A DNA stretch of 64,000 nucleotides, taken from positions 67,477 to 131,476 of the forward strand of contig WRDR01000002.1 in assembly GCA_009779745.1 (NCBI GenBank), written 5' to 3'. Numbering within the stretch: the stretch's first letter is position 1; every line of letters begins with the position of its first letter. The notes below the pieces were generated by a model that made no database searches, was not told the origin of the DNA, and worked only from the letters and a program-made list of their open reading frames with translations. The DNA comes from Alphaproteobacteria bacterium (GTDB taxonomy: Bacteria > Pseudomonadota > Alphaproteobacteria > UBA9219). This document shows, in pieces, positions 20-56,200 of this stretch. The translations under genes were made by a program, and so were the position numbers.

Positions 20-117
20 TAATTGCCCTATTTCTGCCTACGCTTCCACCTTCGCTAAAGCTACGGCGGACAAGAAAGCTACGGCAAGACTTCGCCCGCC
101 TTCGCGGGAATGACAAG
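20..117. repeat. GC-rich short direct repeats (gctacggcggacaag / gctacggcaagac) followed by palindrome cttcgcccgccttcgcgggaatgacaag
   Basis: Direct reading. The 90-117 unit is the reverse-complement relative of tgtcattcccgtgaaggcgggaat at 30762-30787. Confidence 0.5.
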
Positions 118-172
118 ATGGGTAGACAGTAACCAAACCACTACTTAGTCTTCGCCAGTGAAGAGGAATACC

Positions 173-3163
173 TTATTGCCTCATAATAGTAGCCGGATCC
201 TCGTGAGCGTACTCTACCAGCTCTTTTGCCATTTCTGCGATAACAGAGCTGGTTGACGCTTCATTAATGTTTCCTCTGTCCGTATACGCAGCGACTCTGC
301 GCCGCACTTCCTGTCTTGCGGAACCTCCCGGAAAATACTTCGCCAATGTTCTTCTGGCAATAACCGCTCCCAGCTCTTCGTAAAGATGCGTTCTTAAAAG
401 CACGTCCTCTACGGACGTAGACAATGCCCATAATTCAATAGGTCCCAGCGTGTTCACCAGATGCTGCTCGTACCGCCCTTCGTTAGTAGACAGCAGCAAA
501 AGCACGGGAGCTCCTGACGATCTCGGTCCTGTCAGCTTATATCTCATGACCCACTTGGCAGTATCGGACAGTCCGAAAATCTTTCCGGTTTCTTCTATGG
601 CTCTGTCGGAAACTGCGGTTCCGCAAATCCATACGCCCGTAGCCAAATCCACCATATCCTTAGAAAAGTCGTCTAATAACTGAGATGCCAAAACTATCTG
701 AACACCCCATTTTCTTCCTTCTCTTACGTCTCTGATGACCTGCGCTCTCACGGAAGGGCTTCTGCTGGTGCGGTGAAATTCGTCATAGCATATTCTTTTG
801 GGAGTTTCCCTTATGTCTCTAATCCTAGACTCATGATAGTTCCTGTACTTTTCCGGCACGGATCTTAACATATCGGTTCCAAGCCACCACAGCCTCGCCA
901 CAACGTGTCTTGCCAGCATGTACATCGTAGCAGTCTGTCTGTCCGCATTAACATCTCCTTGCGGCGACACGTCTTGCAAGTCCATAGCCACTACTCTGGC
1001 AGCTCCTACGTCAAACTTAGTAATAGACGCCAGTATGGGAAACTCTCTGACTGACGTAGCAATCATACGCTCGAACGCATGTATGATTCCTTCGGAAGAG
1101 GCTCCTATCTGAGTTTCTTCCAAGAGCGCGCGTATCTGAGGTCTCCTTGCGGCAGTGACTGCATCGGACAGTGTAGGCACGGCATGTCTCTGCGCCAGCA
1201 TAGCCTCGTGATACGCTCCTTTTTCAAACAACGCATCTACAACTTCCCACCACAGAGGATCTTCCTGCAGATTAATATTGTACTTTTTTAGAGTCTCATC
1301 TACCTCCGCCTCTACTCTTTGCAGATACGGTCTCGGCTCGGAATTCGCTCCTCCGTCATCGCGCCAGCGGTACATCTCGTCTATGCAAAGCCCAACCAAC
1401 TGCGTCATGCCGTCATATGCTTCTATCTGACCCGCAGGCGTACAAAGCAGCGTAAGCAAATCCGTGAGATAAGACCTTTCTTCAGGCAGCGGGAACCTGC
1501 ACCCCAGCTGAGTGTCAAAAGGATTGACTGCATACTCCGGCGTCATGCGCAGTTTAATATGAACAGCCTCGTATCTTCTTTCCGGAGGCAACGCATCGCG
1601 AATCAGAGAAATCAGCCCGGAAGACGAGGGTCCTATATCCAATATGGCGACATAAGGAAGACTGGACGCTCCGGCAGAAAGAACCGTTCCTAAATTCAGA
1701 GCGTTCATCAGCACGGACTTACCGGCACCGGGCTGTGCAAATATCAAATCAAACCACAAAGAAGTAAGAGAAGTTCCCGACTGATAAGGCCAAGCTCTTC
1801 CGTCTACAGTCCTGAACATCACAGAGCCTTCCGTGTACGGAGAGGAGCCTCTCTGCCAAGGAAAGAGCTTCACAACCTCGTGGAAAGGAGCAACTACCGC
1901 AGGAGCAGTAGAAGCGCACGCAATGCCCAGCGCGGAAGACATCAGCATATCCAATGGATCGCCAGCAGCAGAAGAAGCCTGACAATATCCCCAAGCTTCC
2001 AGCGTCTGAGTCATAGAAGCTATTCTTGTCTCAATGAGCTTTCTGTTGCTGGAAGGAGCATAAGTCGCCATAGATATCCGGAGCTTCACAACCGGCTCTG
2101 CGCGCGCAACTTTGTTCAGTTCCAATATCGTGTTGCGTATGTCTTTATTAACGGCATTGGTAAACCCTAAAACTCCGGCTACAAACGCCTTGAATGCCAT
2201 CCCGTATATTCCGCCGCTCTCTACCAGAAACGATATTCTGAACGGCATATCGCTGTCTATGAGCCTGTCCAGCAGCTGAGTAAACGGCGCAGGCTCGGAA
2301 GGAGCCAGAGTCATATCAAGCCCGCTCCAGAATAAAGGTCCGATGCGCACTATGTTGCTTGCCACAATACCGGCGTCTTCAACGCAAAGCTGCCTTCTTA
2401 TAGGAGGCCACAGAATATCGGAAGCGTCTCTCTCTCCGTGCTGAGGAGCCCGCGGCAGAATAGGATCCCCGGGCAAATTAGCCCTCCAGTCCTTATGCCC
2501 CAAATGAGGAGACAGACTGGCACGTACCGCTGCCAAAGCCTCATGAACATCTATGACAGAGACCTTCATACTTAGCTCTTCCATTGCGCTTGTAACGGAA
2601 GCCACGAAACTCTTGTGTCTGGTTCTCAATACAGGCAGAGCTCTTAGCGGAAACTGTGAATCCGGAGCTCTAATCCATTTTTTCTTGCCTAAATCCTTCT
2701 TAGCTTCCGCAAGTTCTGTTTTCGTAAGAACAGAGGGCCTTGTCCACAGCACAAGATACATATCCTCGTGCGCCATATATCTGGACAGGTTCGTAGCTCT
2801 TTCTTCGATAAGATCGCCAAGCTCCAAATCTTCCGCTTTCATAGCACTGCGGTTGCTGTTCATGACTCCTTCGAGATCCTGACCTATCAAAGAGGGATCT
2901 CTGGCAAAATAGAACTGCATAGCGTAGCCCGGGCGGTCGAACCTAGCTCCCAGCTTAATAGTAGCCTGATCTACAATCCAGTTGTACTCTGTCTCGCCGA
3001 CAATGACTCTGGAGCCGTGGTTTTTAACGAAAGTTATGAGAGAGCCGTCCGCTGCCACCAAAGTAGTTTCGTCATCTGCGGTTTCGAGCTGAATAAAAGA
3101 TTCGACGGGCTGATGCAAACCAGTCATCAAAGAGGCTACAGCTTCATCAAAAATTTCGAACAT
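173..3163 (-). CDS. Type IV secretion/conjugation ATPase, VirB4/TraC/TrbE family. The 996-aa length fits the long DotO(IcmB)/TraU-like class.
   Basis: Walker A FAQPGAGKS. Walker-B-like ICYDEFH. VirB4 signature REGRKWGVQIVLASQ (RK...[AS]TQ-type motif D). 996 aa. By eye, GC is higher than in flanking genes. Confidence 0.7.
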   Translation of the reverse strand: MFEIFDEAVASLMTGLHQPVESFIQLETADDETTLVAADGSLITFVKNHGSRVIVGETEYNWIVDQATIKLGARFDRPGYAMQFYFARDPSLIGQDLEGVMNSNRSAMKAEDLELGDLIEERATNLSRYMAHEDMYLVLWTRPSVLTKTELAEAKKDLGKKKWIRAPDSQFPLRALPVLRTRHKSFVASVTSAMEELSMKVSVIDVHEALAAVRASLSPHLGHKDWRANLPGDPILPRAPQHGERDASDILWPPIRRQLCVEDAGIVASNIVRIGPLFWSGLDMTLAPSEPAPFTQLLDRLIDSDMPFRISFLVESGGIYGMAFKAFVAGVLGFTNAVNKDIRNTILELNKVARAEPVVKLRISMATYAPSSNRKLIETRIASMTQTLEAWGYCQASSAAGDPLDMLMSSALGIACASTAPAVVAPFHEVVKLFPWQRGSSPYTEGSVMFRTVDGRAWPYQSGTSLTSLWFDLIFAQPGAGKSVLMNALNLGTVLSAGASSLPYVAILDIGPSSSGLISLIRDALPPERRYEAVHIKLRMTPEYAVNPFDTQLGCRFPLPEERSYLTDLLTLLCTPAGQIEAYDGMTQLVGLCIDEMYRWRDDGGANSEPRPYLQRVEAEVDETLKKYNINLQEDPLWWEVVDALFEKGAYHEAMLAQRHAVPTLSDAVTAARRPQIRALLEETQIGASSEGIIHAFERMIATSVREFPILASITKFDVGAARVVAMDLQDVSPQGDVNADRQTATMYMLARHVVARLWWLGTDMLRSVPEKYRNYHESRIRDIRETPKRICYDEFHRTSRSPSVRAQVIRDVREGRKWGVQIVLASQLLDDFSKDMVDLATGVWICGTAVSDRAIEETGKIFGLSDTAKWVMRYKLTGPRSSGAPVLLLLSTNEGRYEQHLVNTLGPIELWALSTSVEDVLLRTHLYEELGAVIARRTLAKYFPGGSARQEVRRRVAAYTDRGNINEASTSSVIAEMAKELVEYAHEDPATIMRQ

Positions 3164-3226
3164 TTTCCAACGCTATCTTACAGTTAAGGCATACACTTTT
3201 AGGAATACGACTTAATAGTTAAGATA

Positions 3227-3262
3227 ATGTGAAATGTGGAGTGTGGAGTGTGAAATTGGGAA
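3227..3262. repeat. Purine-tract half element (gtgaaatgtggagtgtggagtgtgaaattggg) in the divergent promoter region
   Basis: Same GTGGAGTG unit as the hairpin repeats at 14189, 17311, 21552, 24098 and 56075. No complementary arm is present here. Confidence 0.5.
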
Positions 3263-3312
3263 TATTAAAAAAATAATATTTATTTAGTAAAATTTATATA
3301 CTATAATGTGTT

Positions 3313-4191
3313 ATGTCTAAGAATTCGGGAAAAAATCTGCAAAACAACTTATCAAGGCGGCAGTTTGTCAAGACTTCCGCCTGCGCAGTCTGTTTTGCGC
3401 TTGCAGCCTCCGCTTTCAGCTTTAAGGCTTTTGCCAGTACGGCGGTAACGGCTAAAGTAAAGCCTCCTGTGCCTAAAAGCGTGCCGTTTCCGGTAAGAAA
3501 GCCCATACCTCCAAAGTACATCGTCATAGACGCAGGACACGGCGGCAAAGATCCCGGAGCTATCGGAGTAAAAGGCACTCATGAAAAAATCGTAACTCTG
3601 GATATTTCCAAAAAAATAGCCTCTATATTGGAAAAACAGGACTCTTTTGTTGTCAAGCTGACTCGCGATAACGATACGTACCTGTCGCTCAAAGACCGAG
3701 TCCAAATCGCAAGGAGCTATAATGCCGATTTGTTCATCTCTATACATGCAGACTCCGCGCCCAATAAGAAGGCAAGCGGGCTGTCTATATATACCCTTTC
3801 CGAAGAGGCATCTGACGACTTCGCCAAAAAACTGGCAGAGACGGAAAACAGGGCTGATGTTATTGAAAATATTCTGGGTCTTCAATTAGAAAACAAAAAT
3901 GTATCGTCTATACTGATGGATATGACTGCGAAGCACACCAGAAACACAGCAAAGCAGGCTAAGATGTCTATTATACAATCCCTGAACAAAAAATGGGATC
4001 TGTTTGATTCCCCTGCTAAGTCCGCTAATTTCGCAGTTCTCAGAGCACCCGAGATACCCTCTATTCTCATAGAAACCGGCTTTCTGTCCAACATAAAAGA
4101 CGAACAGATTCTGACTCAGGCTGCTCAGAGAAAAAAAATAGCAGAGCTTCTGGCGCAGAGTGTTATGAATATTCCTGTTTTGAAGGTGTGA
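3313..4191 (+). CDS. amiC: N-acetylmuramoyl-L-alanine amidase (Amidase_3, AmiC-like) with a twin-arginine signal peptide
   Basis: N-terminal SRRQFVKTSA Tat motif. IDAGHGGKDPGA Amidase_3 signature. C-terminal ETGFLSN block. Confidence 0.8.
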   Translation: MSKNSGKNLQNNLSRRQFVKTSACAVCFALAASAFSFKAFASTAVTAKVKPPVPKSVPFPVRKPIPPKYIVIDAGHGGKDPGAIGVKGTHEKIVTLDISKKIASILEKQDSFVVKLTRDNDTYLSLKDRVQIARSYNADLFISIHADSAPNKKASGLSIYTLSEEASDDFAKKLAETENRADVIENILGLQLENKNVSSILMDMTAKHTRNTAKQAKMSIIQSLNKKWDLFDSPAKSANFAVLRAPEIPSILIETGFLSNIKDEQILTQAAQRKKIAELLAQSVMNIPVLKV

Positions 4192-4196
4192 AATAT

Positions 4197-6779
4197 TTAC
4201 CTACCAATAACCCGTATACCGTCAGCAACAAAGCCGTCTCCGCCTTCTAAGAAAAGGTTATAAACCGTACTCTTGCCTGCTTTCGGCTCGATAGTTTTTA
4301 CTTCTTCTATCTTACCGTCAGCTTTCACGAGTTTATCTCCAACCTTTATCTCACCGGCTCGGACAAGCTTACCGTCTGATAATAAAACAGGGTGAGCAGA
4401 AGTAATCTCCAGATTGTTGATTCTCATATACTCCATGTCTCCGGTTATAGTCATTTTTTTAACTTTAGCCGGTTTGAGGGCAGCTTTTGGTTCTGATAAG
4501 TTAAAGCCCATCACCATGTCTCTGTCCCTTACATCAACGATAGCTTTAACGGAACCGTCCGCCATTGCAATCTGAGCTTTTGAAGGCAGGCAGACATGGA
4601 TAACAGGAGTACTCAAACAGTCCAAGTCTTTCTCAGAAATAATAGTGCCAAGGATACCTTTCTCTTTAACCTCTTTACGTACTCTATTCAGGTCGCTCCT
4701 CTTGAAAAACATATAGGCACTGCTACTACCTCTCCCTTGCTGGGCTTCCTGGTGGGTCGAGTAGTACCCGTCTTCAGAAGTACCTATATAACTCTGTCCT
4801 AGTCTAATCCCGTATGCAGCAAGATTGTTAGCGATTTCCTCCCACCTAAAACGATCACATGTGCTTACACACGGAGTAGGATTAGTACATGTCCGCTGAA
4901 AAACGCACTTTCCTTTATCGTCTTTATGTATATTTCCTTCAGGGTTTATTGGCTCCGGTATATACATGTCCGGATTATCCTTTACACACGTTTCACAATC
5001 TTCAAAAACACCTGTAGACCGCATACACTGACGAGTGGCTGTTATTGTTATTGACGATTGACAGGCTAACTTAGGACATTTAATAGTGCCGTCCCAATAT
5101 CCTTGTATTTCAGTATCTTCCGGACCAACAATTTTTCTTTCACAAGAATCCGTTCTCTCTTTCACGTTCATATTCTTATACCAGATATCCGCAGTCGGAC
5201 TGGAGACTATTGTCGACATACCAGACAAATTGCCGCTTTGAGCAGCATCTATAAAGGATATTAACTCTTTATTTGTTCTTGCAGGTACTAAAAATGTCTT
5301 GCAGCCTCCGGTACCCGTGCTGCCGCCGCCGCTTATAAACTCCTTAATCTTGTCGTCCAGAGCAGATAAATCACAGTTGTCAGCATTAGTGGTGTTATAT
5401 ACATCCTTGCAATAAAAGGTTCCGTCCTCAGCCGTAAATTCAAACGCCATAGCCCCGGACACATCATAAAAATCACCCGGATAAACAGGCGCACCTTTCT
5501 TAACGGTGCTGCTGAGATCTTCTAAAAATCTTCCGTCTGCCGGATAAGACACTTGTGTATGCTGGGTATTATTCGTACCTCTCCACGGGCATATATCCTC
5601 ATTCTTTGGATTAGTACAATCAGCGGTAGGCTCATCAACAAAAGTTATCCCCTCTTGAGGAACCCAAGGAAAACGCCAATACGTCATACGAGCTGCTCCG
5701 GTACTTCCAACAACAGGAAAAGCGTCCGGCAAAAATAAATCCACAAAGACATAATCATCGTCAACTTCGCCGTACTGATAGTATTTTATACAGGTTTGTC
5801 TTCCATAAAAACCGTCCCAAATCAAACGTTCTTCAGGAGAACACTCCTGAAGCACGGTTTCAATACGGAGTACGGGTCTGCTGCTGTGCATTTGTTTAGA
5901 AGGTCTCTTATAGCCTGGCATCATCGGCGGCATTTTTTCACAAAGAGCACCAGACAAGTTAATCCTCTCGTTTGATTCCCTAGCCTTTTCCTTAGCTTTC
6001 ATAGCCTCAAAAGCTTCCGAAACACAGGTATCGTTTATTATAGCATCTACTTCTTTACGTTTAAGTTCTTCATAAAACTGTTTTGCATAGGGCTCGAATA
6101 TTATATCGCCTGCGGTTTCTTTTATATAATCTTCCACTGTCACAAAACGCCAATCGGAAACAAATATATTTTCGTTCTCTATATTATGTTTACGGTCAAA
6201 TAACCGCAAATCACTACTGAAGACCTGCAAATATCTCCAAGGACATTCATCTACAGAGCAAGGCACTCCCTCACCTCCTTGAGATAGAAACTCTTTTATC
6301 TTTTCTTCCATAGCGTATATATAACAGCCTCCTTCAACAGGAGCATGATCATCACAGTTATGCTCCGTGTCGCCTGTATAATACAATGCAGCAAGCGGAC
6401 TAAGCAGCCAAAGTCCGCAGAAATCCTTGTCATTTTCTGTTATACAAAGCTTTTCCGGACAAACTGCACTGTTACGATACGGCAGGTAGTATCGTGATAT
6501 ATCGCCAACATAAGCTGATCTGCCTTCTCCTTTATAATCAACAGCATACATTAAAATATCATTGTGGTTTAGATTTCCCGTACATGTAACAGAATTATTA
6601 GCCCCTTCTTTAATCGTATGCATTTCAGCAGGAATTTTTTCGTCCGGCAGTCTTCCCCAAGCCGCTTGCCAGTCGAAGGGAACAGCAATATTTGTGCTTG
6701 CCGCAAAGGCATTCGGAGCAAAAAACAATCCGGTAACAAAGACTGCCGCAGTAAGGAATTTACCAAAATACCGTGTCAT
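4197..6779 (-). CDS. Secreted cysteine-rich 860-aa protein with a C-terminal Hint (Hedgehog/intein-like) autoprocessing domain
   Basis: Sec signal peptide (...FAPNAFA/AST). More than 35 Cys in the N-terminal ~720 aa. Internal repeat EEKIKEFLSQGGEG / DDKIKEFISGGGSTG. C-terminal Hint blocks: CLPSKAQIAMADGSVKAI, TSAHPVLL (TxxH), VYNLFLEGGDGFVADGIRV. No terminal HN and no C-extein. Confidence 0.75.
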   Translation of the reverse strand: MTRYFGKFLTAAVFVTGLFFAPNAFAASTNIAVPFDWQAAWGRLPDEKIPAEMHTIKEGANNSVTCTGNLNHNDILMYAVDYKGEGRSAYVGDISRYYLPYRNSAVCPEKLCITENDKDFCGLWLLSPLAALYYTGDTEHNCDDHAPVEGGCYIYAMEEKIKEFLSQGGEGVPCSVDECPWRYLQVFSSDLRLFDRKHNIENENIFVSDWRFVTVEDYIKETAGDIIFEPYAKQFYEELKRKEVDAIINDTCVSEAFEAMKAKEKARESNERINLSGALCEKMPPMMPGYKRPSKQMHSSRPVLRIETVLQECSPEERLIWDGFYGRQTCIKYYQYGEVDDDYVFVDLFLPDAFPVVGSTGAARMTYWRFPWVPQEGITFVDEPTADCTNPKNEDICPWRGTNNTQHTQVSYPADGRFLEDLSSTVKKGAPVYPGDFYDVSGAMAFEFTAEDGTFYCKDVYNTTNADNCDLSALDDKIKEFISGGGSTGTGGCKTFLVPARTNKELISFIDAAQSGNLSGMSTIVSSPTADIWYKNMNVKERTDSCERKIVGPEDTEIQGYWDGTIKCPKLACQSSITITATRQCMRSTGVFEDCETCVKDNPDMYIPEPINPEGNIHKDDKGKCVFQRTCTNPTPCVSTCDRFRWEEIANNLAAYGIRLGQSYIGTSEDGYYSTHQEAQQGRGSSSAYMFFKRSDLNRVRKEVKEKGILGTIISEKDLDCLSTPVIHVCLPSKAQIAMADGSVKAIVDVRDRDMVMGFNLSEPKAALKPAKVKKMTITGDMEYMRINNLEITSAHPVLLSDGKLVRAGEIKVGDKLVKADGKIEEVKTIEPKAGKSTVYNLFLEGGDGFVADGIRVIGR

Positions 6780-6819
6780 TTTTGACTCCCTAAATTTAAT
6801 AAATGCTTATGACTAAATT

Positions 6820-7125
6820 TTGCATATTCGGGTATTATATCCCGTGGTGTTATATAAGTCAATAAGCAATAATTTGCAGATGGCGAAACCTTCTGCAAAA
6901 CATGCGGGCAATCCTGCGCTGATAAGAATAGGAAAGACTATCCGCAAAATTCGTGCGGACAGAAAAATCTCGCAGGAAGCGTTGGCCTATGAAGCCGGTA
7001 TTGACCGCTCTTACATGGGCGGCATTGAGAGAGGCGAGCATAACATCACTATTATAAACCTGATGAAGGTAGCCTCGCAGCTTGATATTAAATTGAGCAA
7101 ACTGTTAGAGAAAGCTGATTTGTAG
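6820..7125 (+). CDS. XRE-family HTH transcriptional regulator, C-protein-like. The likely true start is ATG at 6880 (MAKPSAK...).
   Basis: IGKTIRKIRADRKISQEALAYEAGIDRSYMGGIERGEHNITIINLMKVASQLDIKLSKL matches HTH_XRE and restriction-modification controller-type proteins. Confidence 0.7.
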   Translation: MHIRVLYPVVLYKSISNNLQMAKPSAKHAGNPALIRIGKTIRKIRADRKISQEALAYEAGIDRSYMGGIERGEHNITIINLMKVASQLDIKLSKLLEKADL

Positions 7126-7194
7126 AACTATTCCGCCCAAAGCAGCCTCCAATTCTACTTTTTATCTTTTTGATATAGGCTCTGTTTTTCTCTG

Positions 7195-7204
7195 CCGAAA
7201 AAAA
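7195..7204. repeat. Left target-site duplication ccgaaaaaaa of the IS
   Basis: An identical 10-mer directly flanks the other IS end at 8489-8498. Confidence 0.6.
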
Positions 7205-8488
7205 CACTGTCAAACCACAAGTTAAAATGAGACACTTTCGCCAAAAGTTAAAATGAGACTGGAGGGTTAATAAGAGAGAAGCAAGCAACTAAACTGTCAC
7301 CTAAAAAGGTGACGAATATGAATAAAAAAGACTTATATACACGGTTGACAACAATAGAAAGGCTTGCTTCAGGCACAATTTCTGTTTTTTTGCAATGTCC
7401 GTGCTTAACCTGAGCAAAAGCCAAACTTTTAAGCTGTTAAAACAATACCGAGAACACGGCTTACAAAGCATTAAACACGGACTATGTAACCGTCTGTCAA
7501 ACAATCAAGGCAATTCGTCTGTGAAAGAGCAAGTGCTCGGGTTAATACGCAGCAAATATTATGATTTTGGACCTACGCTTGCCAGCGAACACTTGCTTGA
7601 AGAAGAAGGCATACAAGTTCATCCGGAAACGCTGCGCATATGGATGAAACAAGCAGGATTGGCACATAAAACACGCAAGCGCAAGCCATATCGCCAGCGC
7701 AGGGATCGCAAAGAATGCTTTGGCAAGATGCTGCAGATTGACGGCAGTTTTCATCATTGGTTCGGGGTGGATAAACCAAAAGCCTGTTTGTTAAACTTGA
7801 TTGATGATGCGACTTCACACAATTTGTGTCTGTTTGATCATGAAGAAACATCGTATACTGCCTGTATAGTTCTTTGGCAATGGATACAAAAATACGGCAT
7901 TCCGCAAAGCATTTATTGTGACAGAAGAAATGCCTATATTTCCAGCGAACTATCAGAAAGCTCGGGCTTCTTCGGACAAATGTGTAAAAGATTGAGAATA
8001 CAGATTATTCCGGCTTTCTCAGCGCAAGCAAAAGGACGGGTTGAACGCTCAAATCAGACGCATCAAGACAGGCTTGTTCCCAAGATGAGGCTGCACAACA
8101 TAACAACAATAGAAGCGGCAAACCAATATTTGCAAAGACATTATCTGCATTATCACAACAGCAGGTTTGCAAAACAATCTGCGAGTTTTGAAGATGTTCA
8201 TAGCAAATTGCCTCAACACACAAAACTGGATGACATTTGTTATTTGGAAGAAACAAGAAAAGTTAACAACGACTGGACTATAAAGTTCAGAGGAAGAACC
8301 TTGCAGATTACACGGAAAAACTATTGTCCCGCTAAATCTGCTGTAATGGTACGATACTCTATAAACGGTCATACGGATATTTACTATAAAAACGAACATC
8401 TCAGCTATATTACGCTGAACTCATAACCTCAGAGTCTCATTTTAACTTTTGGCGAAAGTGTCTCATTTTAACTTGTGGTTTGACACTG
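7205..8488. mobile_element. Complete insertion sequence (~1.28 kb) with ~54-bp terminal inverted repeats and one DDE-transposase gene. IS481-like; the family assignment is tentative.
   Basis: Left end cactgtcaaaccacaagttaaaatgagacactttcgccaaaagttaaaatgagact. Right end is its reverse complement (agtctcattttaacttttggcgaaagtgtctcattttaacttgtggtttgacactg), 53/53 identical from tgtcaaacc. 10-bp direct repeats flank both ends. Confidence 0.85.
7395..8426 (+). CDS. IS transposase (rve/DDE integrase-core type with N-terminal HTH)
   Basis: N-terminal HTH LSKSQTFKLLKQYREHGLQSIKHG. Central D...D...E-type catalytic region (QIDGSFHHW, IYCDRRNAY, RVERSNQTHQD). Lies between the TIRs. Confidence 0.75.
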   Translation: MSVLNLSKSQTFKLLKQYREHGLQSIKHGLCNRLSNNQGNSSVKEQVLGLIRSKYYDFGPTLASEHLLEEEGIQVHPETLRIWMKQAGLAHKTRKRKPYRQRRDRKECFGKMLQIDGSFHHWFGVDKPKACLLNLIDDATSHNLCLFDHEETSYTACIVLWQWIQKYGIPQSIYCDRRNAYISSELSESSGFFGQMCKRLRIQIIPAFSAQAKGRVERSNQTHQDRLVPKMRLHNITTIEAANQYLQRHYLHYHNSRFAKQSASFEDVHSKLPQHTKLDDICYLEETRKVNNDWTIKFRGRTLQITRKNYCPAKSAVMVRYSINGHTDIYYKNEHLSYITLNS

Positions 8489-8570: not shown

Positions 8571-9509
8571 ATGAACTCTCGTTCTTCTGTCGTCATAAAA
8601 AAATATGCCAACCGCCGCCTGTACAACACTGCTACAAGCAGTTACGTTACTTTGAGCTCCCTATCCGAGATGATTAAAGACGGCACCGAGTTCAATGTTT
8701 ATGACGCTAAGTCCAATGAAGATATTACCCGCTCTGTCTTGGCTCAGATAATGGTCGAAGAAGAGAGCAAACCCGGTCAGAACCTGCTCCCAAGCAGTTT
8801 CCTTCGCCACCTTATAAGTTTTTATGGAGATAGTATGCAGTGGATCGTACCTAAGTATCTGGAACAAAGCCTTCAGCTCCTCATTAAAAATCAAGAGCAA
8901 ATCCGCGATTATATGCGCTCTTTTGACTCGGTCATGCCGTTTAATTCCATCTTCGAACAGATGAGCAAACAGAACATGGCTATTTTCGAAAGTGCTATGA
9001 AAATGTTTGATCCGGTAGCTCAATCTAAAGACGGTAACGCTTTCTCTCCTTTCAACATGATGATGTATGTTGCTAGTTCTCAAAAGCCAGCCAGTTCTTC
9101 CGTCTCCGGAAAATCAACTGCCGACGGGTCTTCCAAAGCGTCCGGTGCTGTTTCTGTTGCTAAGCCGCACTCCGTTGCTGTTCAGCAGCCTTCTGCTCCT
9201 AAGCCTCCCAAGGGGCTTTCCACTGCATCGGGACACAAGGAAGAGATAGACCACAAGAGCCTCCATGCGGATATATATAACAAGCCTGTTGCTAAAACAG
9301 ACTCCGAACCGGTTATAAAGGCAGAAGAAACAGCTTCTGATGATTCAGACGTTACCGCTGCTTCACAGCTCAAAAAAAAACTTCAAGAAATTCCAACGCC
9401 GGAAACAAAAAAAACCGTAGTTCAAAATCAAGTTTCGGGCACTGATATTCAGAATAAAATAGCTGCTTTGCAAAAACAGCTCTCTGATCTGGCTCGCAAC
9501 AGAGCGTAA
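8571..9509 (+). CDS. phaR: Polyhydroxyalkanoate synthesis repressor PhaR with a low-complexity C-terminal extension
   Basis: N-terminal IKKYANRRLYNTATSSYVTLSSLSEMIKDGTEFNVYDAKSNEDITRSVLAQIM is the PhaR signature. Confidence 0.8.
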   Translation: MNSRSSVVIKKYANRRLYNTATSSYVTLSSLSEMIKDGTEFNVYDAKSNEDITRSVLAQIMVEEESKPGQNLLPSSFLRHLISFYGDSMQWIVPKYLEQSLQLLIKNQEQIRDYMRSFDSVMPFNSIFEQMSKQNMAIFESAMKMFDPVAQSKDGNAFSPFNMMMYVASSQKPASSSVSGKSTADGSSKASGAVSVAKPHSVAVQQPSAPKPPKGLSTASGHKEEIDHKSLHADIYNKPVAKTDSEPVIKAEETASDDSDVTAASQLKKKLQEIPTPETKKTVVQNQVSGTDIQNKIAALQKQLSDLARNRA

Positions 9510-12851: not shown

Positions 12852-13404
12852 ATCTAACGTTCGGAATCTTCGGAGTAGGCTTTGCCATAACGCCCAATAT
12901 CTCTGTCAAGACTGTTTTCGAGTGTCCGTGCGTAGGCGTTTCTTTGTCTACAAGAGCAACATCTCTTGCTGCCGCATCAATATTTCTCACATCAGCCACA
13001 ACGCCGGCATCATCAAAAACTATTTCTATGGCTTCTTGTTTTACCAGTGTCGGCATAAAAAAAGAAACCTGTTCCGCCTGCCTTCCGACATAGTACCAAA
13101 CCTTGTCGTCCACCGTGCTTGTGAATACGGGAGAACCCAGTATCATGACTACGTCTTCTCTGGTAGACTGTCCTTGTTTGATTTGTTCAAGATCATCTTG
13201 ATGCACAAAAGTGCCGCTGGTGGATACAGTAGGAACACATGCTGTCATTCCAAGCAAAGCTGCAAGCAGTAAAGAAGAAATGTATGAAGTATAGAAATTA
13301 GTTGTCATTGCCGTATTTTCCAAGTACCATGAGAATGTATGTTGACAGCATACGCCAATCGCAAAAAAAAAGCAAATAAAGACTATAAAGCTATGACTGA
13401 ACAA
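12850..13404 (-). CDS. bamE: Outer-membrane assembly lipoprotein BamE (SmpA/OmlA). The true start is likely the internal Met (MTTNFY...).
   Basis: Lipobox LLGMTAC. SmpA_OmlA-like segment REDVVMILGSPVFTSTVDDKVWYYVG. Confidence 0.7.
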   Translation of the reverse strand: MFSHSFIVFICFFFAIGVCCQHTFSWYLENTAMTTNFYTSYISSLLLAALLGMTACVPTVSTSGTFVHQDDLEQIKQGQSTREDVVMILGSPVFTSTVDDKVWYYVGRQAEQVSFFMPTLVKQEAIEIVFDDAGVVADVRNIDAAARDVALVDKETPTHGHSKTVLTEILGVMAKPTPKIPNVR

Positions 13405-13860
13405 AATTTACAAAATGAGTTTTCCAGAATCATAACCGTATCCAGAATTCACTCAAAAGGTGCCGAGGAAAAAATAGAAGCCTCTCCGCATGAAAGAGAG
13501 GCTTTGGCTAAAAGATTCAGTCTTATCGGCATAAACAGCCTTACTGCAAAGATTTCGCTGGAGCCTAAGGAATACTTCAACAAACAGATTATTGCAGTAG
13601 ACGGCAGAGTAAATGCTTCTGTCCGTCAGCAATGTATCCGCACGCTTGAAGAGGTTACCAATGTGCTGGACTTTACGTTTTCCGTAATATTTGTAAAGGA
13701 CGGCGAATTCACCGGGGACGAACTATCTGAAATAGAAAGCAGTTCTCTTATGGCTGATGAAGAGGTTGACATCTATTACAAAGGCAGGATTGATATAGGC
13801 GAACTGGCTGCTCAGCAGCTGTTTGTGCACCTAGACCAATATCCCAGAAAAGTCGGCTAA
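13339..13860 (+). CDS. yceD: YceD/DUF177 family protein (23S rRNA accumulation). The likely start is MTEQN at ~13393.
   Basis: Canonical position immediately upstream of rpmF-plsX-fabH. DUF177-like acidic C-terminus. Confidence 0.65.
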   Translation: MLTAYANRKKKANKDYKAMTEQNLQNEFSRIITVSRIHSKGAEEKIEASPHEREALAKRFSLIGINSLTAKISLEPKEYFNKQIIAVDGRVNASVRQQCIRTLEEVTNVLDFTFSVIFVKDGEFTGDELSEIESSSLMADEEVDIYYKGRIDIGELAAQQLFVHLDQYPRKVG

Positions 13861-13989
13861 GATATTGTAATTTATGCAAATATATGGACAGAGCATAATT
13901 TGTTTTACTTTTGGGCCTGAATATTGTATTAGCCTATCTTTGAAACGGGTTAAACAGAACCTACGAAAGATAAGATATAGGTAGAAATC

Positions 13990-14178
13990 ATGGCAGTTCC
14001 TAAACGAAAAACTTCTAAGTCGGCTCGCAATATGCGCCGCTCTCACCATGCTCTTAGTGCTGTCAACAGCATAGAGTGTCCTAATTGCGGCGAAGTAAAG
14101 CTGCCTCATCATGTGTGCAGTGCTTGCGGTCATTATAACGGTAAACCTTCAATAATCACGTCTAAGAAAACCGCTTAA
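13990..14178 (+). CDS. rpmF: 50S ribosomal protein L32
   Basis: [22 protein letters not shown]...CPNCGE...[10 protein letters not shown]. Confidence 0.95.
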
Positions 14179-14188
14179 AGCTGAATAT

Positions 14189-14263
14189 GAGTGTTGAGAG
14201 TGGAGTGTGGAGTTGGTACATATTCTTAACTCCAAACTCCACACTCCAAACTCCACACTTCCC
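14189..14263. repeat. Hairpin repeat, GTGGAGTG family. Arms gagtgttgagagtggagtgtggagtt / aactccaaactccacactccaaactccacacttccc. Loop ggtacatattctt.
   Basis: Read directly. Lies between rpmF and plsX. Confidence 0.8.
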
Positions 14264-14274
14264 ACAAGGCTCCT

Positions 14275-15372
14275 ATGATAAAAATAAACGATGAAACAGC
14301 GGGCGATTTTTATAAGGTTCCATGCGTAATGGCTCTTGATGCTATGGGAGGAGATAACGCTCCGGACATAGTCATAGACGGCGCAGCTATAGCGCACAAA
14401 AAGTACCCTAATCTTAAATTCATTTTTTTCGGCAATGAAGATCTTATATCTCCTGTGCTGGACAAACACTCTTCATTGAAAGCTGTCAGCAGCATAAGGC
14501 ACACAAGCGATGTTATCACGTCCGATATGAAGCCCTCTCTGGCATTGAGGCAAGGGCGGAATTCCAGCATGAGGCTTGCTATTAATGCAGTATCTGCCGG
14601 AGAAGCGGACTGCATAGTATCTGCGGGAAATACCGGAGCTTTGATGGTGCTCGCTAAATTCGTGCTGAAGACGCTGCCCGGCATAGACAGACCCGCTATA
14701 GCAACTATGATACCTTCTCAGAAAGGCAGCACCGTAGTGCTGGACCTCGGAGCAAACATAGAGTGCGATTCGGAAAACCTAGTGCAGTTCAGCTTAATGG
14801 GAGCTATTTTCTGTAAGACCATACTGGGTAAAGAGATGCCTACTATCGGTTTGCTGAATATCGGAACAGAAGAGCTGAAGGGGCATGAGGAAGTCAGAAT
14901 TGCAGCATCTATATTAAAGGAAAGACCCATTCCGGGAAGACTGTACGGATTTATAGAGGGGAATGATATAACGTCCGGCACTGTGGACGTAGTCGTTACG
15001 GACGGGTTCAGCGGAAACATTGCTCTTAAGAGTATAGAAGGAGCTGCCGGATTGTATTCGTATTTTATAAAGCGTACAATAGCCTCGTCTTTGCTGGCGA
15101 AAATCGGATTTTTCTTGGCAAGCTTTGCGCTGGCGGACTTGAAGAAAAAAGTGGATCCGAGACATTATAACGGAGCCATGTTTTTGGGACTGCGCGGAGT
15201 GTGCGTGAAAAGCCACGGAGGCGCGGACGCAGCAGGCTTTGCAAACGCAATCGGAGTAGCGCACAGTTTAGTAGCTCACGCTTATAATGCGCGGATAGCA
15301 AAAGAGATAGCTTTTCAGTACGGCAGCGACATAGAAGATGATGAAGCTGGGGAAGAAGAGCCAAATGATTAG
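14275..15372 (+). CDS. plsX: Phosphate acyltransferase PlsX
   Basis: MALDAMGGDNAP motif. Full-length PlsX homology. Operon position. Confidence 0.9.
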   Translation: MIKINDETAGDFYKVPCVMALDAMGGDNAPDIVIDGAAIAHKKYPNLKFIFFGNEDLISPVLDKHSSLKAVSSIRHTSDVITSDMKPSLALRQGRNSSMRLAINAVSAGEADCIVSAGNTGALMVLAKFVLKTLPGIDRPAIATMIPSQKGSTVVLDLGANIECDSENLVQFSLMGAIFCKTILGKEMPTIGLLNIGTEELKGHEEVRIAASILKERPIPGRLYGFIEGNDITSGTVDVVVTDGFSGNIALKSIEGAAGLYSYFIKRTIASSLLAKIGFFLASFALADLKKKVDPRHYNGAMFLGLRGVCVKSHGGADAAGFANAIGVAHSLVAHAYNARIAKEIAFQYGSDIEDDEAGEEEPND

Positions 15373-20402: not shown

Positions 20403-21548
20403 ATGACTGTAAATATGAAAGAAACATTGATGACTATGAAGGCTCTCGCTGCTGACAACACCGAGCTGTCTCGTGTTCAGTTGGCAGGAATGCTCTTTGA
20501 TGTCTTTATCAGCCAGCGTGCTCACATAGGTGCTGCTGAAGAGAAAGAGATAAATGCGCTCATAGACCAGCTTATGGAAAACGCTCCTTATCACATAAGA
20601 GAGGAAATAGCCAGACGCTTTGCAGATGCTTACAGAATGCCCCGCCGCATAGCGATGAAGCTCATCTATGACAGCAAAGAGCTTGCTATGCCTATACTGA
20701 AAAATGTCGACAACTTAGATGATAAGGACCTTATCAGCATAATCAAGTCTGACGGGATAAAAGAAGACAAGCAGCAGTATGCCAAGGCAATAGCGGAACG
20801 CAAAGAGATAAGCGAAGCCGTAGTAGATGCCTTAGTCACGACCGGAGATGTCGAGGTAATAGAAGTTATAGTGAATAACTTAGGAGCGAAATTAAGTCCT
20901 AAGGCTGTGGTTGCTATTACCAGCATAGCCAGATACATGGAAGCTCTTCAGAAACCGCTGTTAGAACGCAGAGAGGCTACTACCGAAGTTGCGTTAAAAT
21001 TGTTCTGGTGGATAGAGCAGGATTTGCGCAGGTATGCTATCAGCAGGTTCTATTTGGTTTCAGAACAGATAGAAAGCTCGCTTGCGTCTACTATAAAAGA
21101 TTTTCTAAACGATCATGCGAACGAAAAGGACAATGATAAAGTAATGGAAGATCTTGCAAAGTGGATTTACGATCATAAGGCTATAACGCCTAAGGTCTTG
21201 CAGCAGGTTCTTCGCATGGGCTACTTTGGACTGTTCAAGAAGCTGTTTGCAAAGATGGCCGGGCTGTCACTAGACGTGATAAACGGGATTATAGAAGAAC
21301 CCGGCGGACGCGGCTTTGCAGCAGCCTGTAAGGCGAACAAGATCGACAAGGCTATATTCATATCCCTCCTGCTGCTTTCAAGAGGCGGCAGACAGGGAGA
21401 ACAGAATGTCAATCCCAGAGAAGTAGCCAGCGCACTTGCAGTGTTTGACGGATTGTCTATAGAAAAAGCAGCAGTCTTGCTGGCAAGCTGGAAGCTGAAT
21501 CCTTCGTACTTCAAGAAGACAGCGGAAACTAAGATTGTGAAAATGTAG
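20403..21548 (+). CDS. Conserved alphaproteobacterial hypothetical protein (DUF2336-like, alpha-helical)
   Basis: 381-aa all-helical protein. The family assignment is from memory of the size and composition of this alphaproteobacterial family, so it is tentative. Confidence 0.4.
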   Translation: MTVNMKETLMTMKALAADNTELSRVQLAGMLFDVFISQRAHIGAAEEKEINALIDQLMENAPYHIREEIARRFADAYRMPRRIAMKLIYDSKELAMPILKNVDNLDDKDLISIIKSDGIKEDKQQYAKAIAERKEISEAVVDALVTTGDVEVIEVIVNNLGAKLSPKAVVAITSIARYMEALQKPLLERREATTEVALKLFWWIEQDLRRYAISRFYLVSEQIESSLASTIKDFLNDHANEKDNDKVMEDLAKWIYDHKAITPKVLQQVLRMGYFGLFKKLFAKMAGLSLDVINGIIEEPGGRGFAAACKANKIDKAIFISLLLLSRGGRQGEQNVNPREVASALAVFDGLSIEKAAVLLASWKLNPSYFKKTAETKIVKM

Positions 21549-21551
21549 AAA

Positions 21552-21622
21552 AGTGTGGAGTGTGAAGTGTGGAGTTGATGCGTATTCTTAACTCCACACT
21601 TCACTCTCAACACTCCACACTT
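21552..21622. repeat. Hairpin repeat, GTGGAGTG family. Loop ggagttgatgcgtattcttaactcc.
   Basis: Arms aagtgtggagtgtgaagtgtggagtt / aactccacacttcactctcaacactccacactt. Confidence 0.8.
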
Positions 21623-21686
21623 ATAATTTAACATTTCTGTTGACGAAAGCATTATAAAGCGTTAACTAGATGACCTATTTTTAATT

Positions 21687-23525
21687 ATGGATAAATTAAT
21701 GGCTTTCGCAAATAACCTAAGAAATATAGCAATCATAGCTCACGTTGACCACGGCAAAACTACGATGGTGGATCAACTGCTCAAACAGGCAGGCACCTTC
21801 AGAGCCAACCAGCAGGTAGCTGAAAGAGCTATGGACAGCAACGACATAGAAAGAGAAAGAGGCATTACCATACTGGCGAAATGCACTTCTATTTTAAGAG
21901 GCAATCTCCGAATAAACATAGTAGACACTCCCGGGCACGCTGATTTCGGCGGAGAGGTAGAACGCATTTTGTCTATGGTTGACGGAGTAGTGCTGCTGGT
22001 TGACGCTGCGGAAGGTCCTTTGCCTCAGACTAAGTTTGTGCTGTCAAAGGCACTGAGCATAGGGCTGAGACCTATTGTGGTAATCAACAAGGTAGACAGA
22101 TCCGATGCCAGAATACACCAAGTGCATGATGAGATTTTTGATTTATTCGCAGCTCTGGACGCTACGGAAGAACAGTTGGATTTTCCGACTCTGTTTGCGT
22201 CCGGCAGAAACGGGTGGGCGGTGAATAACATAGGTGATGAGACTAAGGATTTGTCTCCTCTGTTTGACCTCATAGAAAAGCATGTGCCGTGTCCGAAAGT
22301 AGACGAGACTGCCAGTTTCAAGATGCTGGCGACCATACTCGAGGCTAATCCTTATTTAGGCAGGCTTTTGACCGGACGCATAGAATCCGGAACCCTGAAA
22401 ACCAATATGGCGATAAAGGCTCTGTCTCATGACGGAAAACTCATAGAGCAAGGCAGAGCAAGCAAAATACTGGCGTTCAGAGGGCTGGAAAGAGTGCCTG
22501 TAGACGAGGCATATGCCGGAGATATTATAGCTATAGCAGGGCTTTCCGAGGCTACTGTGGCTGACACAGTGTGCGATTTGACAGTGAATGAGCCGCTTAA
22601 GGCAAGACCTATAGATCCCCCTACTATAGCAATGACGTTTTCCGTGAATGACTCTCCGCTGGCCGGAACAGAAGGCGACAAGGTTACAGGCAGAGTAATC
22701 CGGGACAGGCTGCTTAAAGAAGTGGAAAGCAACGTTGCAATACGAGTCACTGAGCCGGAAGACAGAGACGCTTTTGAAGTAGCCGGAAGAGGAGAATTAC
22801 AGCTCGGTATTCTTATAGAGACTATGAGAAGAGAAGGATTTGAATTATCTATAAGCCGTCCCAGAGTTATTTTTAAGACGATGGACGGGCAAAGACAGGA
22901 ACCTATAGAGGAAGTAGTCATAGATGTAGATGAGGCGTATTCCGGAGTAGTAGTCAACAAGATGTCTGAAAGAAAAGCAGAGCTTACCGACATGAGACCG
23001 TCCGGAGGCGGCAAGACTAGGCTCACGTTTTTAGCTCCTTCAAGAGGGCTTATAGGATACTACGGAGAGTTCCTAAGCGATACCAGAGGTACAGGATTGA
23101 TGAACAGACTCTTCCACGGATATGCGCCGTATAAAGGAGCTATTCAGTCCAGAAGAACCGGAGTAATGATTTCCAACGGACAAGGCGAGTCAGTTGCATA
23201 TGCTATGTGGAAGCTGGAAGACAGAGGACCTATGATTATAACGCCCGGCACAAAGGTGTATGAGGGTATGGTTATAGGAGAGCATTCCAAGAGCAATGAT
23301 TTAGATGTGAATGTGCTGGAAGGAAAAAAGTTGACGAATATAAGAACAACCTCTAAAGATGAAGCGGTGCGGCTCACGCCGCCCATGATCTTGACGTTGG
23401 AAAAGGCGATAGCGTATATAAATGACGATGAGCTGGTGGAGGTTACGCCAAAGACAATCAGGCTGCGGAAAAGGTATCTGGATCCCGTGACCAGAAAAAG
23501 AATGGCGAAACAAGTTGAGAACTGA
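21687..23525 (+). CDS. typA: Translational GTPase TypA/BipA
   Basis: G motifs [21 protein letters not shown]. 612 aa with the BipA C-terminal domain. Confidence 0.92.
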
Positions 23526-30761: not shown

Positions 30762-30953
30762 TGTCATTCCCGTGAAGGCGGGAATAGGGCAAGCCTGCTG
30801 TAATCAAGCAATCTAGTTAGTACTATAACAACATAATATTGAAAGAAAAACTCTATTCAAACGCCTCACTAATAAAATTGTATCTTGTACCAACCTTGCC
30901 CACTCCCGCCTACGCGGGAGTGACAAGCGGAGGCTTGGGAGTGACAGCCGGAG
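30762..30953. repeat. GC-rich palindromes ttgtcattcccgtgaaggcgggaatagg (30762-30789) and cactcccgcctacgcgggagtgacaagcggaggcttgggagtgacagccggagg (30901-30953)
   Basis: ATTCCC-N8-GGGAAT inverted repeat. Related copy at 90-117 (reverse complement), and 39783 / 52195 variants. Confidence 0.6.
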
Positions 30954-54929: not shown

Positions 54930-56068
54930 CTATACGTTTATTCCTGTTCTGGATATCCGCAGTCCTCTGTGGATAGAAATGGATAACAATAGTCCGTAAC
55001 CTATCAGGAAGGTCATCATAGCGGTTCCTCCGTATGAGACTAAGGGCAGAGGTATGCCTACGACCGGGATTAATCCGGAAATCATGGCTACGTTGATAAA
55101 CACGTATAAAAACATAGACATAGTTATCCCGAATGCCGCCAGTCTTCCGAACTGATTGCGGCAGGACAGCGCAACCATAGAGCCGTACAGTATTAATATA
55201 GCATACAGTCCCAAAAGGAATAATGCTCCTACCATTCCGAATTCTCAGATAAAACTACGAAAATAAAGTCCGTGTGTTTTTCCGGCAGAAACTGCAGCTG
55301 GCTTTGAGTGCCTTGTCCGAAGCCCCGTCCTGTCAAGCCTCCGGAACCCATGGCTATTTTTGACTGCAATATATTGTATCCATGACCCAGCGGATCTTTA
55401 TCAGGGTCAAGAAACGTGGCTATTCTCGCCTTTTGGTAATCATGAAGTTTTGTCCATGCTATAGGCAATGCGCAGAATATTACCAAAAACAATATTACAA
55501 ACTTCCACCACTTTACGCCTGCGGCAAAAAAAATGGCTCCGCTTACCGCCAGCAATATCAGTGCTGTTCCGAGGTTAGGCTGTAAAAGCACTAATGCGGC
55601 GGGAACCAGCGCTATAATAGTCGGCGGCAGCAGTTTAAACGGGTTGGCTATCTCATTCAAAGAAAGCTCGTGGAAATACTTTGAGAGCATCAATATAAGT
55701 GCGATTTTCATAAGTTCGGACGGCTGTATGACCAGGAATCCCAGATTTATCCACCTTTGGGCACCCATTCCTATGTGTCCCATAATTTCTACTGCGATAA
55801 GCAGTACTAAGACTATCCAATAAAACGGTACTGCAATCCTAAGCCATACTTTTATATCGGTTAACGCTATGCCTATCATAAGGCACATGCCTGCTCCGAA
55901 GCGAATCAGCTGCGGCAATGCCCACGGATACCAGTTCTTCCCTCCGGCAGAATACAAAAGAGCTATGCCTAATAATCCCATTATCAGGACGACAAAAACT
56001 ATTCCCCAGTTCAGGAGCTTCAGCTTGTCGGTCAGACTTAGATTTTCTTCTTTTATAAAATTGGACAT
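54930..56068 (-). pseudogene. rodA: SEDS-family peptidoglycan polymerase RodA/FtsW interrupted by a -1 frameshift near 55240-55246. It is split into 293-aa and 101-aa ORFs.
   Basis: N-terminal part ends ...[15 protein letters not shown]. The other frame continues [14 protein letters not shown]...PLPLVSYGGTAM. Restoring one base in gagaattcgg gives the canonical ...[12 protein letters not shown].... Confidence 0.6.
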
Positions 56069-56074
56069 TATTAT

Positions 56075-56200
56075 TAGTGTGAAGTGTGGAGTGTGGAATT
56101 TTATAGACAAATAGCATGAGGCATACTAGATTGCTCTTGTTTAAAAAGCAATTTTTTTATATTTGCTAACTCCACATTTCACACTCTACACTTCACACTA
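56075..56200. repeat. Hairpin repeat, GTGGAGTG family with a 67-nt spacer: tagtgtgaagtgtggagtgtggaatt ... aactccacatttcacactctacacttcacacta
   Basis: Read directly. Accounts for the artefactual [15 protein letters not shown]-terminal extension of the rodA ORF. Confidence 0.75.

Follow-up and report, generated by a model that had tools for sequence, protein, structure and literature searches.

The gene icmB (dotO), which encodes a VirB4-type ATPase of type IVB secretion, lies at positions 173..3163 of the minus strand in a stretch of 64,000 nucleotides of alphaproteobacterial DNA (contig WRDR01000002.1), hereafter called the window. The results of our analysis make it very probable that this icmB is one piece of a dispersed, vertically inherited chromosomal type IVB system (mating-pair formation type I, MPF-I) in a termite-gut relative of Micavibrio. 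The explanation that we propose is that the Dot/Icm cluster would have been broken up in the ancestor of the clade to which the window belongs, leaving icmB alone beside phaR among housekeeping genes, and that the other Dot/Icm components would have been kept at other chromosomal sites, singly or in small blocks. The dispersed arrangement is the mildly new point; the gene itself joins a known family.

Class and motifs of the IcmB protein

The ORF listing of the window showed one long open reading frame (ORF) with an ATG start at 173..3163 (-), encoding 996 amino acids (aa). Homology, motifs and fold supported the assignment of its product to the VirB4 superfamily of ATPases, in the long I-type class that comprises IcmB, DotO and TraU. 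Two public proteins from metagenome-assembled genomes (MAGs) labelled Alphaproteobacteria bacterium, MCL2473643.1 and MCL2504908.1 (P0001 in our numbering), are 100% identical to it and are annotated as "type IV secretion protein IcmB". More than 1200 full-length homologues were found, the best 120 of which are 66-100% identical and about 996 aa long, and many carry the NCBI or JGI names "type IV secretion protein IcmB" or "intracellular multiplication protein IcmB", among them the 100% identical proteins and others that are 66-75% identical. At the level of 50%-identity clusters, the family comprised 1400 clusters at E ≤1e-3 and 707 at E ≤1e-30, nearly all of the 707 being 980-1050 aa long. 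The gene is already correctly named IcmB in public databases; its putative orthology to Legionella DotO is based on these source annotations and on synteny.

The results of a search of 72,556 plasmids showed that TraU of IncI1 plasmids is 26% identical to the window protein over residues 63-983, which is 92% of its length (E ~1e-89). The best plasmid match was 44% identical and located on a 1.3-Mb Rhizobium replicon, and none of the plasmids gave a match at 60% identity or more. Identity to chromosomal IcmB proteins ranged from 57% to 77%, far above the 26% of TraU. The protein therefore has the length (about 1000 aa) and the full-length homology, both to named IcmB/DotO proteins and to IncI TraU, of the IcmB/DotO/TraU subfamily.

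An AlphaFold model of the window IcmB, made with 74 diverse homologues as alignment, reached a pLDDT of 90.8 and a pTM of 0.87; a shallow alignment of 20 sequences (66-76% identical) gave a pLDDT of only 44.9. The top PDB matches of the model in Foldseek were the R388 TrwK/VirB4 chains 8RTD and 7O41-7O43, the best with an E value of 1.6e-24, a target-normalised TM of 0.69 and 11% identity over about 1000 aligned columns, and the VirB4 C-terminal domain 4AG5 (E 8e-10) was next in the ranking. The model and these matches showed the two-domain architecture of VirB4, with an N-terminal domain and a C-terminal RecA-like ATPase domain. An ATPase of the HerA/FtsK type was rejected, since such proteins ranked far below VirB4 in Foldseek, with TM below 0.3.

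Three ATPase motifs on the minus strand are conserved in an alignment of 74 homologues, reaching down to 31% identity. The Walker A motif (P-loop) FAQPGAGKSV occupies residues 475-484 (1712..1741), with GAGKS at residues 479-483 (1715-1729), and the Walker B motif DEFH is found at residues 794-797 (773..784), within ICYDEFHR. The C-terminal ATPase motif REGRKWGVQIVLASQ, an REGRK motif at residues 814-828 (680..724), overlaps strand 821-827 of the RecA-like domain in the AlphaFold model. The residues K482 (Walker A), E795 (Walker B) and K818 (REGRKWGVQIVLASQ) were invariant, and G479, G481, S483, D794, H797, R814, R817, S827 and Q828 were kept in at least 90% of the sequences. The protein thus has both the Walker A and the Walker B motif expected of the VirB4 superfamily. 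An earlier note on this DNA, made from its letters, had quoted GAGKS and the C-terminal motif, as a VirB4 signature, in a 996-aa ORF; both are intact, and Walker B can be added to them. Its reading of the product as a VirB4/TraC-family ATPase was borne out by the motifs, the TraU homology and the TrwK/VirB4 fold, and its choice of the DotO(IcmB)/TraU-like I-type class agrees with the 100% identical protein named IcmB and with the full-length homology to TraU.

The 149-nucleotide (nt) region between icmB and a divergent Amidase_3 gene (3164..3312) presumably holds the icmB promoter. A weak sigma-70-like match (9 of 12 positions) at 3319..3291 (-) was found there by consensus only, with a count not above chance, and the counts of promoters and terminators in the simple scan were at chance level.

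Clustered and solitary icmB in the relatives

A scan of one genome per GTDB species returned 333 icmB loci (the L numbers used below are our labels for loci and assemblies), the best 80 of which are 57-77% identical to the window's. The MAGs concerned bear the labels Micavibrio, "Bdellovibrionales", Rhodospirillaceae or Alphaproteobacteria, and Micavibrio is placed under Bdellovibrionales by NCBI. The flanking ORFs were clustered into conserved neighbour families, which carry our own c-numbers and have no Pfam name unless one is stated. Many of the relatives' loci contain a conserved, co-oriented block in the order c4, c8, c6, c7, c3, c1, c2, IcmB, c5 (or c9), c10, c12. Comparison with Pfam identified c4 as T4BSS_DotI_IcmL (two copies, E 9e-46), c8 as T4BSS_DotH_IcmK (E 5e-72), c6 as TrbI-like (DotG), c5 as DotM_C (E 6e-46) and c12 as a TraG-D_C/TrwB coupling protein (DotL/IcmO). 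The named order in many genome loci and some metagenome loci is DotI, DotI', DotH, DotG-like, c7, c3, c1, c2, IcmB, DotM, c10, DotL, and icmB orthologues at 57-70% identity in related genomes are embedded in such a cluster. The icmB-bearing block of the relatives is a Dot/Icm type IVB system.

The neighbour-joining tree of IcmB placed the window inside a monophyletic group (L005-L015, L027 and L046) that is nested among cluster-bearing clades. Within the clade of the window, icmB never lies beside Dot/Icm genes. The gene phaR adjoins icmB upstream and in the same orientation in L005, L007-L009, L011-L015, L027, L046, L167 and L170, and the genes downstream of icmB are housekeeping genes, for instance prfB, fabF, era, rnc and lepB in L046. 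The monophyly of the clade and the phaR-icmB synteny indicate that icmB was inherited vertically. Comparison with 8 relatives gave a dN of about 0.20 with saturated dS, and the window IcmB keeps 72-77% identity with the clade members. The dN/dS ratio of icmB could not be computed because its synonymous sites are saturated; a dN of about 0.20 at saturated dS is consistent with long purifying selection on the gene.

A scan of metagenomes with a DotL profile returned 80 loci, which fell into three groups: blocks of IcmB-DotM-c10-DotL, blocks of DotM-c10-DotL without IcmB (Micavibrio clade), and a monophyletic group of solitary DotL genes amid housekeeping genes. A protein search with a profile of the solitary DotL led to P0286, encoded on the 321,306-bp NCBI contig JAMFSS010000009.1 (GCA_026225415.1). 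On the same contig lies the gene for P0018, an IcmB with 73% identity to that of the window, and phaR is upstream of it. The DotL gene of this contig occupies about 86-88.5 kb and is flanked by suf/pepN/pagL/lpxI on one side and SIMPL/secF on the other; its icmB is located at about 150.5-153.5 kb, some 62 kb away. The metagenome sample ERZ12293633 contains one contig with phaC-phaR-icmB (P0012, 75% identical to the window's IcmB), another with a solitary DotL (P0284), and a third with rpsT-dnaA, DotH-DotG-c7 and secA (P0438). The tetranucleotide profiles of these three contigs correlate at 0.95-0.97, and two stretches about 40 kb apart on one contig correlate at 0.96. In the window's clade, the Dot/Icm system is retained but scattered as single genes and small blocks. 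From these clade members we infer that the window's own genome holds further Dot/Icm components. As to habitat, the organism of the window is from a higher-termite gut metagenome: contig Ga0123354_10018287 belongs to JGI sample 3300010882, and "Lab288P4" is the label of a termite-gut sample.

Legionella DotO is an inner-membrane-anchored hexamer of dimers that docks DotB, as seen by cryo-electron tomography (cryo-ET; PMC7029142). By analogy, the window IcmB would assemble into such a hexamer on the cytoplasmic side of the inner-membrane complex, where it would dock the DotB ATPase and energise the assembly and opening of the secretion channel, and together with DotL it would power substrate transfer. 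It is homology and fold that suggest such a DotO-like mechanism for the window protein.

Other arrangements were observed among the relatives. The solitary icmB of L016 (10001-12976) has an inverted dotM 7.5 kb downstream (20499-21728, -), which looks like an intermediate stage of cluster break-up. Two tandem genes for DotL/IcmO-like coupling proteins (291-2666, 791 aa, and 2713-5091, 792 aa) occur on the single metagenome contig L092. Two MAGs labelled Micavibrio aeruginosavorus (L054 and L060) have icmB inside a Dot/Icm block, and two short contigs with the same label (L034 and L079) have just one downstream cluster gene, dotM or c9. The genome paper of M. aeruginosavorus ARL-13 (2011) found no evidence of a type III or type IV secretion system (PMC3189940), and Needham et al. 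(2022) counted MacSyFinder pT4SSi systems in seven marine Micavibrionales (PMC9418006).

Alternative explanations and base composition

Several results weigh against the proposed explanation as a whole. No other Dot/Icm family had a match in the 64-kb window, either in the Pfam scan or with hidden Markov models (HMMs) of the relatives' neighbour families run on all reading frames, and no Dot/Icm gene was present in the 2.7 kb beyond position 1, so that the partner genes of this organism were not found in the sequence reached. The DotL and DotH candidates that were looked up (P0284, P0438, P0422 and P0329) are each from another sample or genome; none of the candidates matches the window in composition, the tetranucleotide profile of L171 correlating with that of the window at only 0.22, and the DotL scan of the metagenome collection returned no contig of sample Ga0123354. 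The branch of the window IcmB in the neighbour-joining tree is somewhat longer than those of its sisters. No Pfam family matched the protein at E up to 0.01, TIGR02746 (NCBIfam TraC-F-type) gave a weak match in the Walker A region (residues 474-630), with 22.5 bits where the cut-off is 567, and sequence searches of the PDB with the protein (phmmer) and with a 20-sequence profile (hmmsearch) gave no match. The mechanism, finally, is taken over from the cryo-ET of Legionella (PMC7029142).

The curated models for the VirB4 superfamily (Pfam CagE_TrbE_VirB and NCBIfam TraC-F-type) did not recognise the protein; the I-type branch is too divergent for Pfam and NCBIfam models, and membership in the superfamily therefore rests on fold and motifs. 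Neither in the window nor in its immediate flanks is icmB embedded in a Dot/Icm or IncI tra cluster (DotI, DotH, DotG, DotM, DotL), which weakens the statement that the gene sits in a T4BSS locus but not the statement that it is icmB. The earlier note had reckoned that an absence of adjacent type IV secretion system (T4SS) genes would make the gene an isolated paralogue; it does stand alone, but as the orthologue of a dispersed system.

The alternative that survives best, although we consider it unlikely, is that icmB is an orphan remnant, the T4BSS having been lost in an AT-shifted and possibly genome-reduced lineage and the lone gene either decaying or recruited to another ATP-driven task. 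The missing partner genes and the slightly long branch are in its favour, as are signs of erosion or rearrangement nearby, namely an insertion sequence (IS), a ftsW/rodA gene split in two ORFs and a Hint gene that is split in another assembly. However, the icmB ORF is full length with every catalytic motif intact, the protein keeps its 72-77% identity to clade members despite saturated synonymous sites, and two other clade members with a solitary icmB also have DotL, one of them DotH-DotG as well. Since a solitary icmB coexists with DotL in clade members, the solitary position is normal for a retained system in this clade.

A horizontal origin, which the earlier note had proposed, is highly improbable. 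According to this explanation, a conjugative element or plasmid-derived island was acquired horizontally and icmB marks its edge, with the rest of the T4SS locus, the relaxase, integrase and att sites lying beyond coordinate 1. Plasmid TraU proteins are indeed homologous to IcmB, and an IS and a Hint-domain protein are found within 5 kb of the gene; but the nearest plasmid homologue is only 44% identical, and the phaR-icmB synteny and the monophyletic clade indicate long vertical residence. A Pfam scan that covered all sizeable ORFs of the 64 kb revealed neither a relaxase nor a coupling protein (T4CP) nor a site-specific integrase in the window, the sole protein with an rve domain being the transposase of the IS (7395-8426). 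The features of a conjugative plasmid or integrative and conjugative element (ICE), that is an adjacent relaxase, coupling protein, integrase and att sites together with foreign codon usage, were thus not found.

Exactly this IcmB protein is present in three other assemblies (L001, L002 and L003), two of which carry the sequence beyond the window. The first 44 bases of the window continue as in L002 and L003, with 100% identity, and past position 1 these assemblies have, in order, rpmJ, a gene for a 298-aa AAA+/AAA_lid_9 protein, gpsA and the start of dnaN. The earlier note had expected the remaining secretion genes before position 1; they are not there in these two assemblies.

The GC content of icmB had been given as an argument for a foreign origin. 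The gene has a GC content of 0.500-0.501, compared with a mean of 0.438 (standard deviation 0.028) for the 55 other genes (z 2.25), which makes it the second most GC-rich of the 56 genes of the window. The first 3 kb of the window have a GC content of 0.489-0.514 vs 0.432 for the whole window, and no stretch of 2991 nt elsewhere in the window exceeds 0.465. The elevation noticed earlier is thus real, but the gap is 6-7 points and not the ~10 judged by eye. The GC content predicted from the amino acids of IcmB under the pooled codon usage of the window is 0.486, vs 0.501 observed, and the residual due to codon choice (+0.015) has a z of 0.95 and ranks 11th of 56. About three quarters of the GC excess is thus amino-acid composition, and codon choice is native.

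In 84% of 68 related loci, the GC content of icmB is above that of its flanking genes, whatever the GC content of the genome, with a mean offset between icmB and its flanks of +0.023 for GC and +0.047 for GC at third codon positions. GC at second codon positions is 0.446 in the icmB of the window, vs about 0.37 elsewhere in the window, and it stays at 0.42-0.47 throughout the 68 loci. Close relatives have a GC content of 51-60%, which suggests that the lineage of the window drifted towards AT and that the constrained IcmB protein lags behind. The higher GC of icmB would then reflect a strongly constrained protein, rich in Ala, Gly, Arg and Pro, in an AT-drifted genome, and not a foreign origin. 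The GC data give no sign of recent transfer, and as a mark of horizontal origin the contrast fails on both the codon-usage residual and the recurrence of the offset in relatives. With native codon usage, a vertical phylogeny and conserved phaR-icmB synteny, the earlier proposal of a horizontal, plasmid or conjugative-element origin was not upheld.

That the GC-rich icmB was joined to an AT-richer contig by mis-assembly at a dispersed repeat has practically no probability, and such a chimera was rejected because three assemblies agree: L001 does diverge exactly at the repeat, 128 nt downstream of the icmB stop codon, but three independent assemblies have one and the same sequence, over 8.4-13.1 kb, across the junction of icmB with its upstream neighbours (amidase, Hint, IS, phaR, recG), the downstream junction is common to the window, L002 and L003, and the codon usage of icmB fits the window.

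Comparison with known systems and the surroundings of icmB

A dispersed, vertically inherited Dot/Icm system resembles several known systems in part. The window protein shares with Legionella IcmB/DotO a length of about 1000 aa, the IcmB name, given by NCBI and JGI to identical or near-identical proteins, and the predicted two-domain VirB4 fold, and the icmB neighbourhood of its relatives has DotI, DotH, DotG, DotM and DotL as in the Legionella Dot/Icm system. The window gene is alphaproteobacterial (Micavibrio-like) and not from Legionellales, and whereas Legionella icmB is located in dot/icm region II, icmB of the window is physically solitary. Comparison with TraU of IncI1 plasmids (R64/ColIb-P9 type), the conjugative VirB4 homologue of MPF-I, showed full-length homology and the same long I-type class. 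However, TraU serves DNA transfer and is encoded on a plasmid, in a conjugation operon that also has a relaxase, while the icmB of the window is chromosomal, flanked by housekeeping genes and without a relaxase in 64 kb. R388 TrwK/VirB4 (type IVA) is the best structural match over the N-terminal and RecA-like C-terminal domains and has the Walker A and B motifs in common with IcmB, but it belongs to another MPF type, is only 10-12% identical and about 170-250 residues shorter (modelled chains of 750-810 residues), and was not detected by sequence searches.

The rvh T4SS of Rickettsiales, which is of type IVA (P-type), is chromosomal and vertically inherited, with duplicated components and with genes scattered over several islets. 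The clade of the window resembles it in that icmB, dotL and dotH-dotG are split singly or in small blocks among housekeeping genes; it differs in that the system is of type IVB and no duplication of icmB was seen. The pT4SSi systems of marine Micavibrionales belong to the same order-level group and T4SS subtype, and the cluster-bearing relatives are of such a kind, but in that study the systems were only counted (PMC9418006). A detector that works only on co-localised genes would probably overlook the arrangement of solitary genes in the window's clade.

Among Micavibrio-like alphaproteobacteria, systems of the Dot/Icm type are widespread and descend vertically; the split system of one clade will go unnoticed by annotation pipelines that depend on gene clusters. 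The case of icmB also shows that a GC-rich gene beside an IS need not be a horizontally acquired island. A bolder proposal, which we put forward tentatively and consider doubtful, is that this uncultured Micavibrio-related clade keeps an ancient scattered Dot/Icm T4BSS, missed by co-localisation detectors, that injects effectors into bacterial prey. The lineage is related to epibiotic predators of bacteria, and the system might therefore target bacterial prey and not eukaryotic hosts. Injection into bacterial prey, if true, would give type IVB secretion a biological role that is new, and the known uses of such secretion would extend beyond Legionellales should these systems function in predation on bacteria or in life within a gut host.

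The stretch between icmB and its ancestral neighbour (3313..8488), delimited with Pfam, inverted repeats and relatives, is context only and not part of the gene. It holds an Amidase_3 gene (3313-4191, +), a gene for an 860-aa Hint-domain protein (4197-6779, -), a gene for an HTH regulator (6820-7125, +), all three identified with Pfam, and an IS with 65-nt inverted repeats (7205-8488), found by an inverted-repeat search. The gene phaR follows at 8571..9509 (+), where its product, a PHB_acc regulator, was recognised by Pfam PHB_acc_N and PHB_acc and by our c14 HMM (E 3.6e-102); it is inverted and 5.4 kb away from icmB. Comparison with 16 relatives showed that phaR directly precedes icmB in 11 of them and that the amidase, the Hint protein, the HTH regulator and the IS are not found within 10 kb of icmB in any. 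The stretch 3313-8488 is a local, lineage-specific insertion or inversion, and icmB itself is an old resident outside it. The suggestion that the left 8 kb form an accessory region thus stands for 3313-8488 and fails for icmB.

The IS seems intact, its arms (7205-7269 and 8424-8488) being 92% complementary and each holding an internal direct repeat spaced by 26 nt, and its transposase (343 aa, 7395-8426, +) has weak matches to rve and HTH_32. The N-terminus of the 860-aa Hint protein resembles a signal peptide, cysteines are numerous in the protein, and a C-terminal PT-HINT/Hint domain occupies residues 739-844; no toxin domain follows, since the ORF stops 16 residues past the Hint domain. In L002, the Hint gene is split into ORFs of 160 aa and 689 aa.

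The 3' flank of icmB (45..172, -) contains the dispersed repeat TCATTCCCGCGAAGGCGGG at 95-113. This short GC-rich palindromic repeat has three copies in the window (95-113, 30764-30782 and 30905-30923) vs 0.01 expected. L001 breaks at the edge of the flank: at window position 44/45, directly after a GC-rich palindromic repeat, its sequence departs from that of the window, L002 and L003; since TCATTCCCGCGAAGGCGGG is present three times in the window, this divergence is probably an assembly break at the repeat. The sequence of L001 after the repeat (13119-14469) is unlike the window and includes a tRNA-like stretch (GGATGGGTGGCAGAGCGGTTGAATGC...) that is partly duplicated about 260 nt upstream; it may be a strain variant or a chimeric join.

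The remainder of the window is ordinary alphaproteobacterial housekeeping, with recG, bamE, plsX, fabH, ispB, hemY, DUF2336, bipA, nusG, trcR, carD, gatCAB, ruvX, pal/ompA, ftsEX-like and uvrC, as well as a two-component system, ftsW/rodA, purM, purN, rlmE and ATP12. A phage or defence-system context was rejected, all neighbours being housekeeping genes. The ftsW/rodA-family gene at 54930-56110 (-) is split into overlapping ORFs of 293 aa (profile positions 8-262) and 101 aa (265-354), a split that suggests a frameshift, a pseudogene or an error in sequencing. An 846-aa ORF at 52229-54769 (-) has no credible Pfam family, and its only match, a sub-threshold one to Baculo_PEP_C, suggests coiled-coil or low-complexity sequence.

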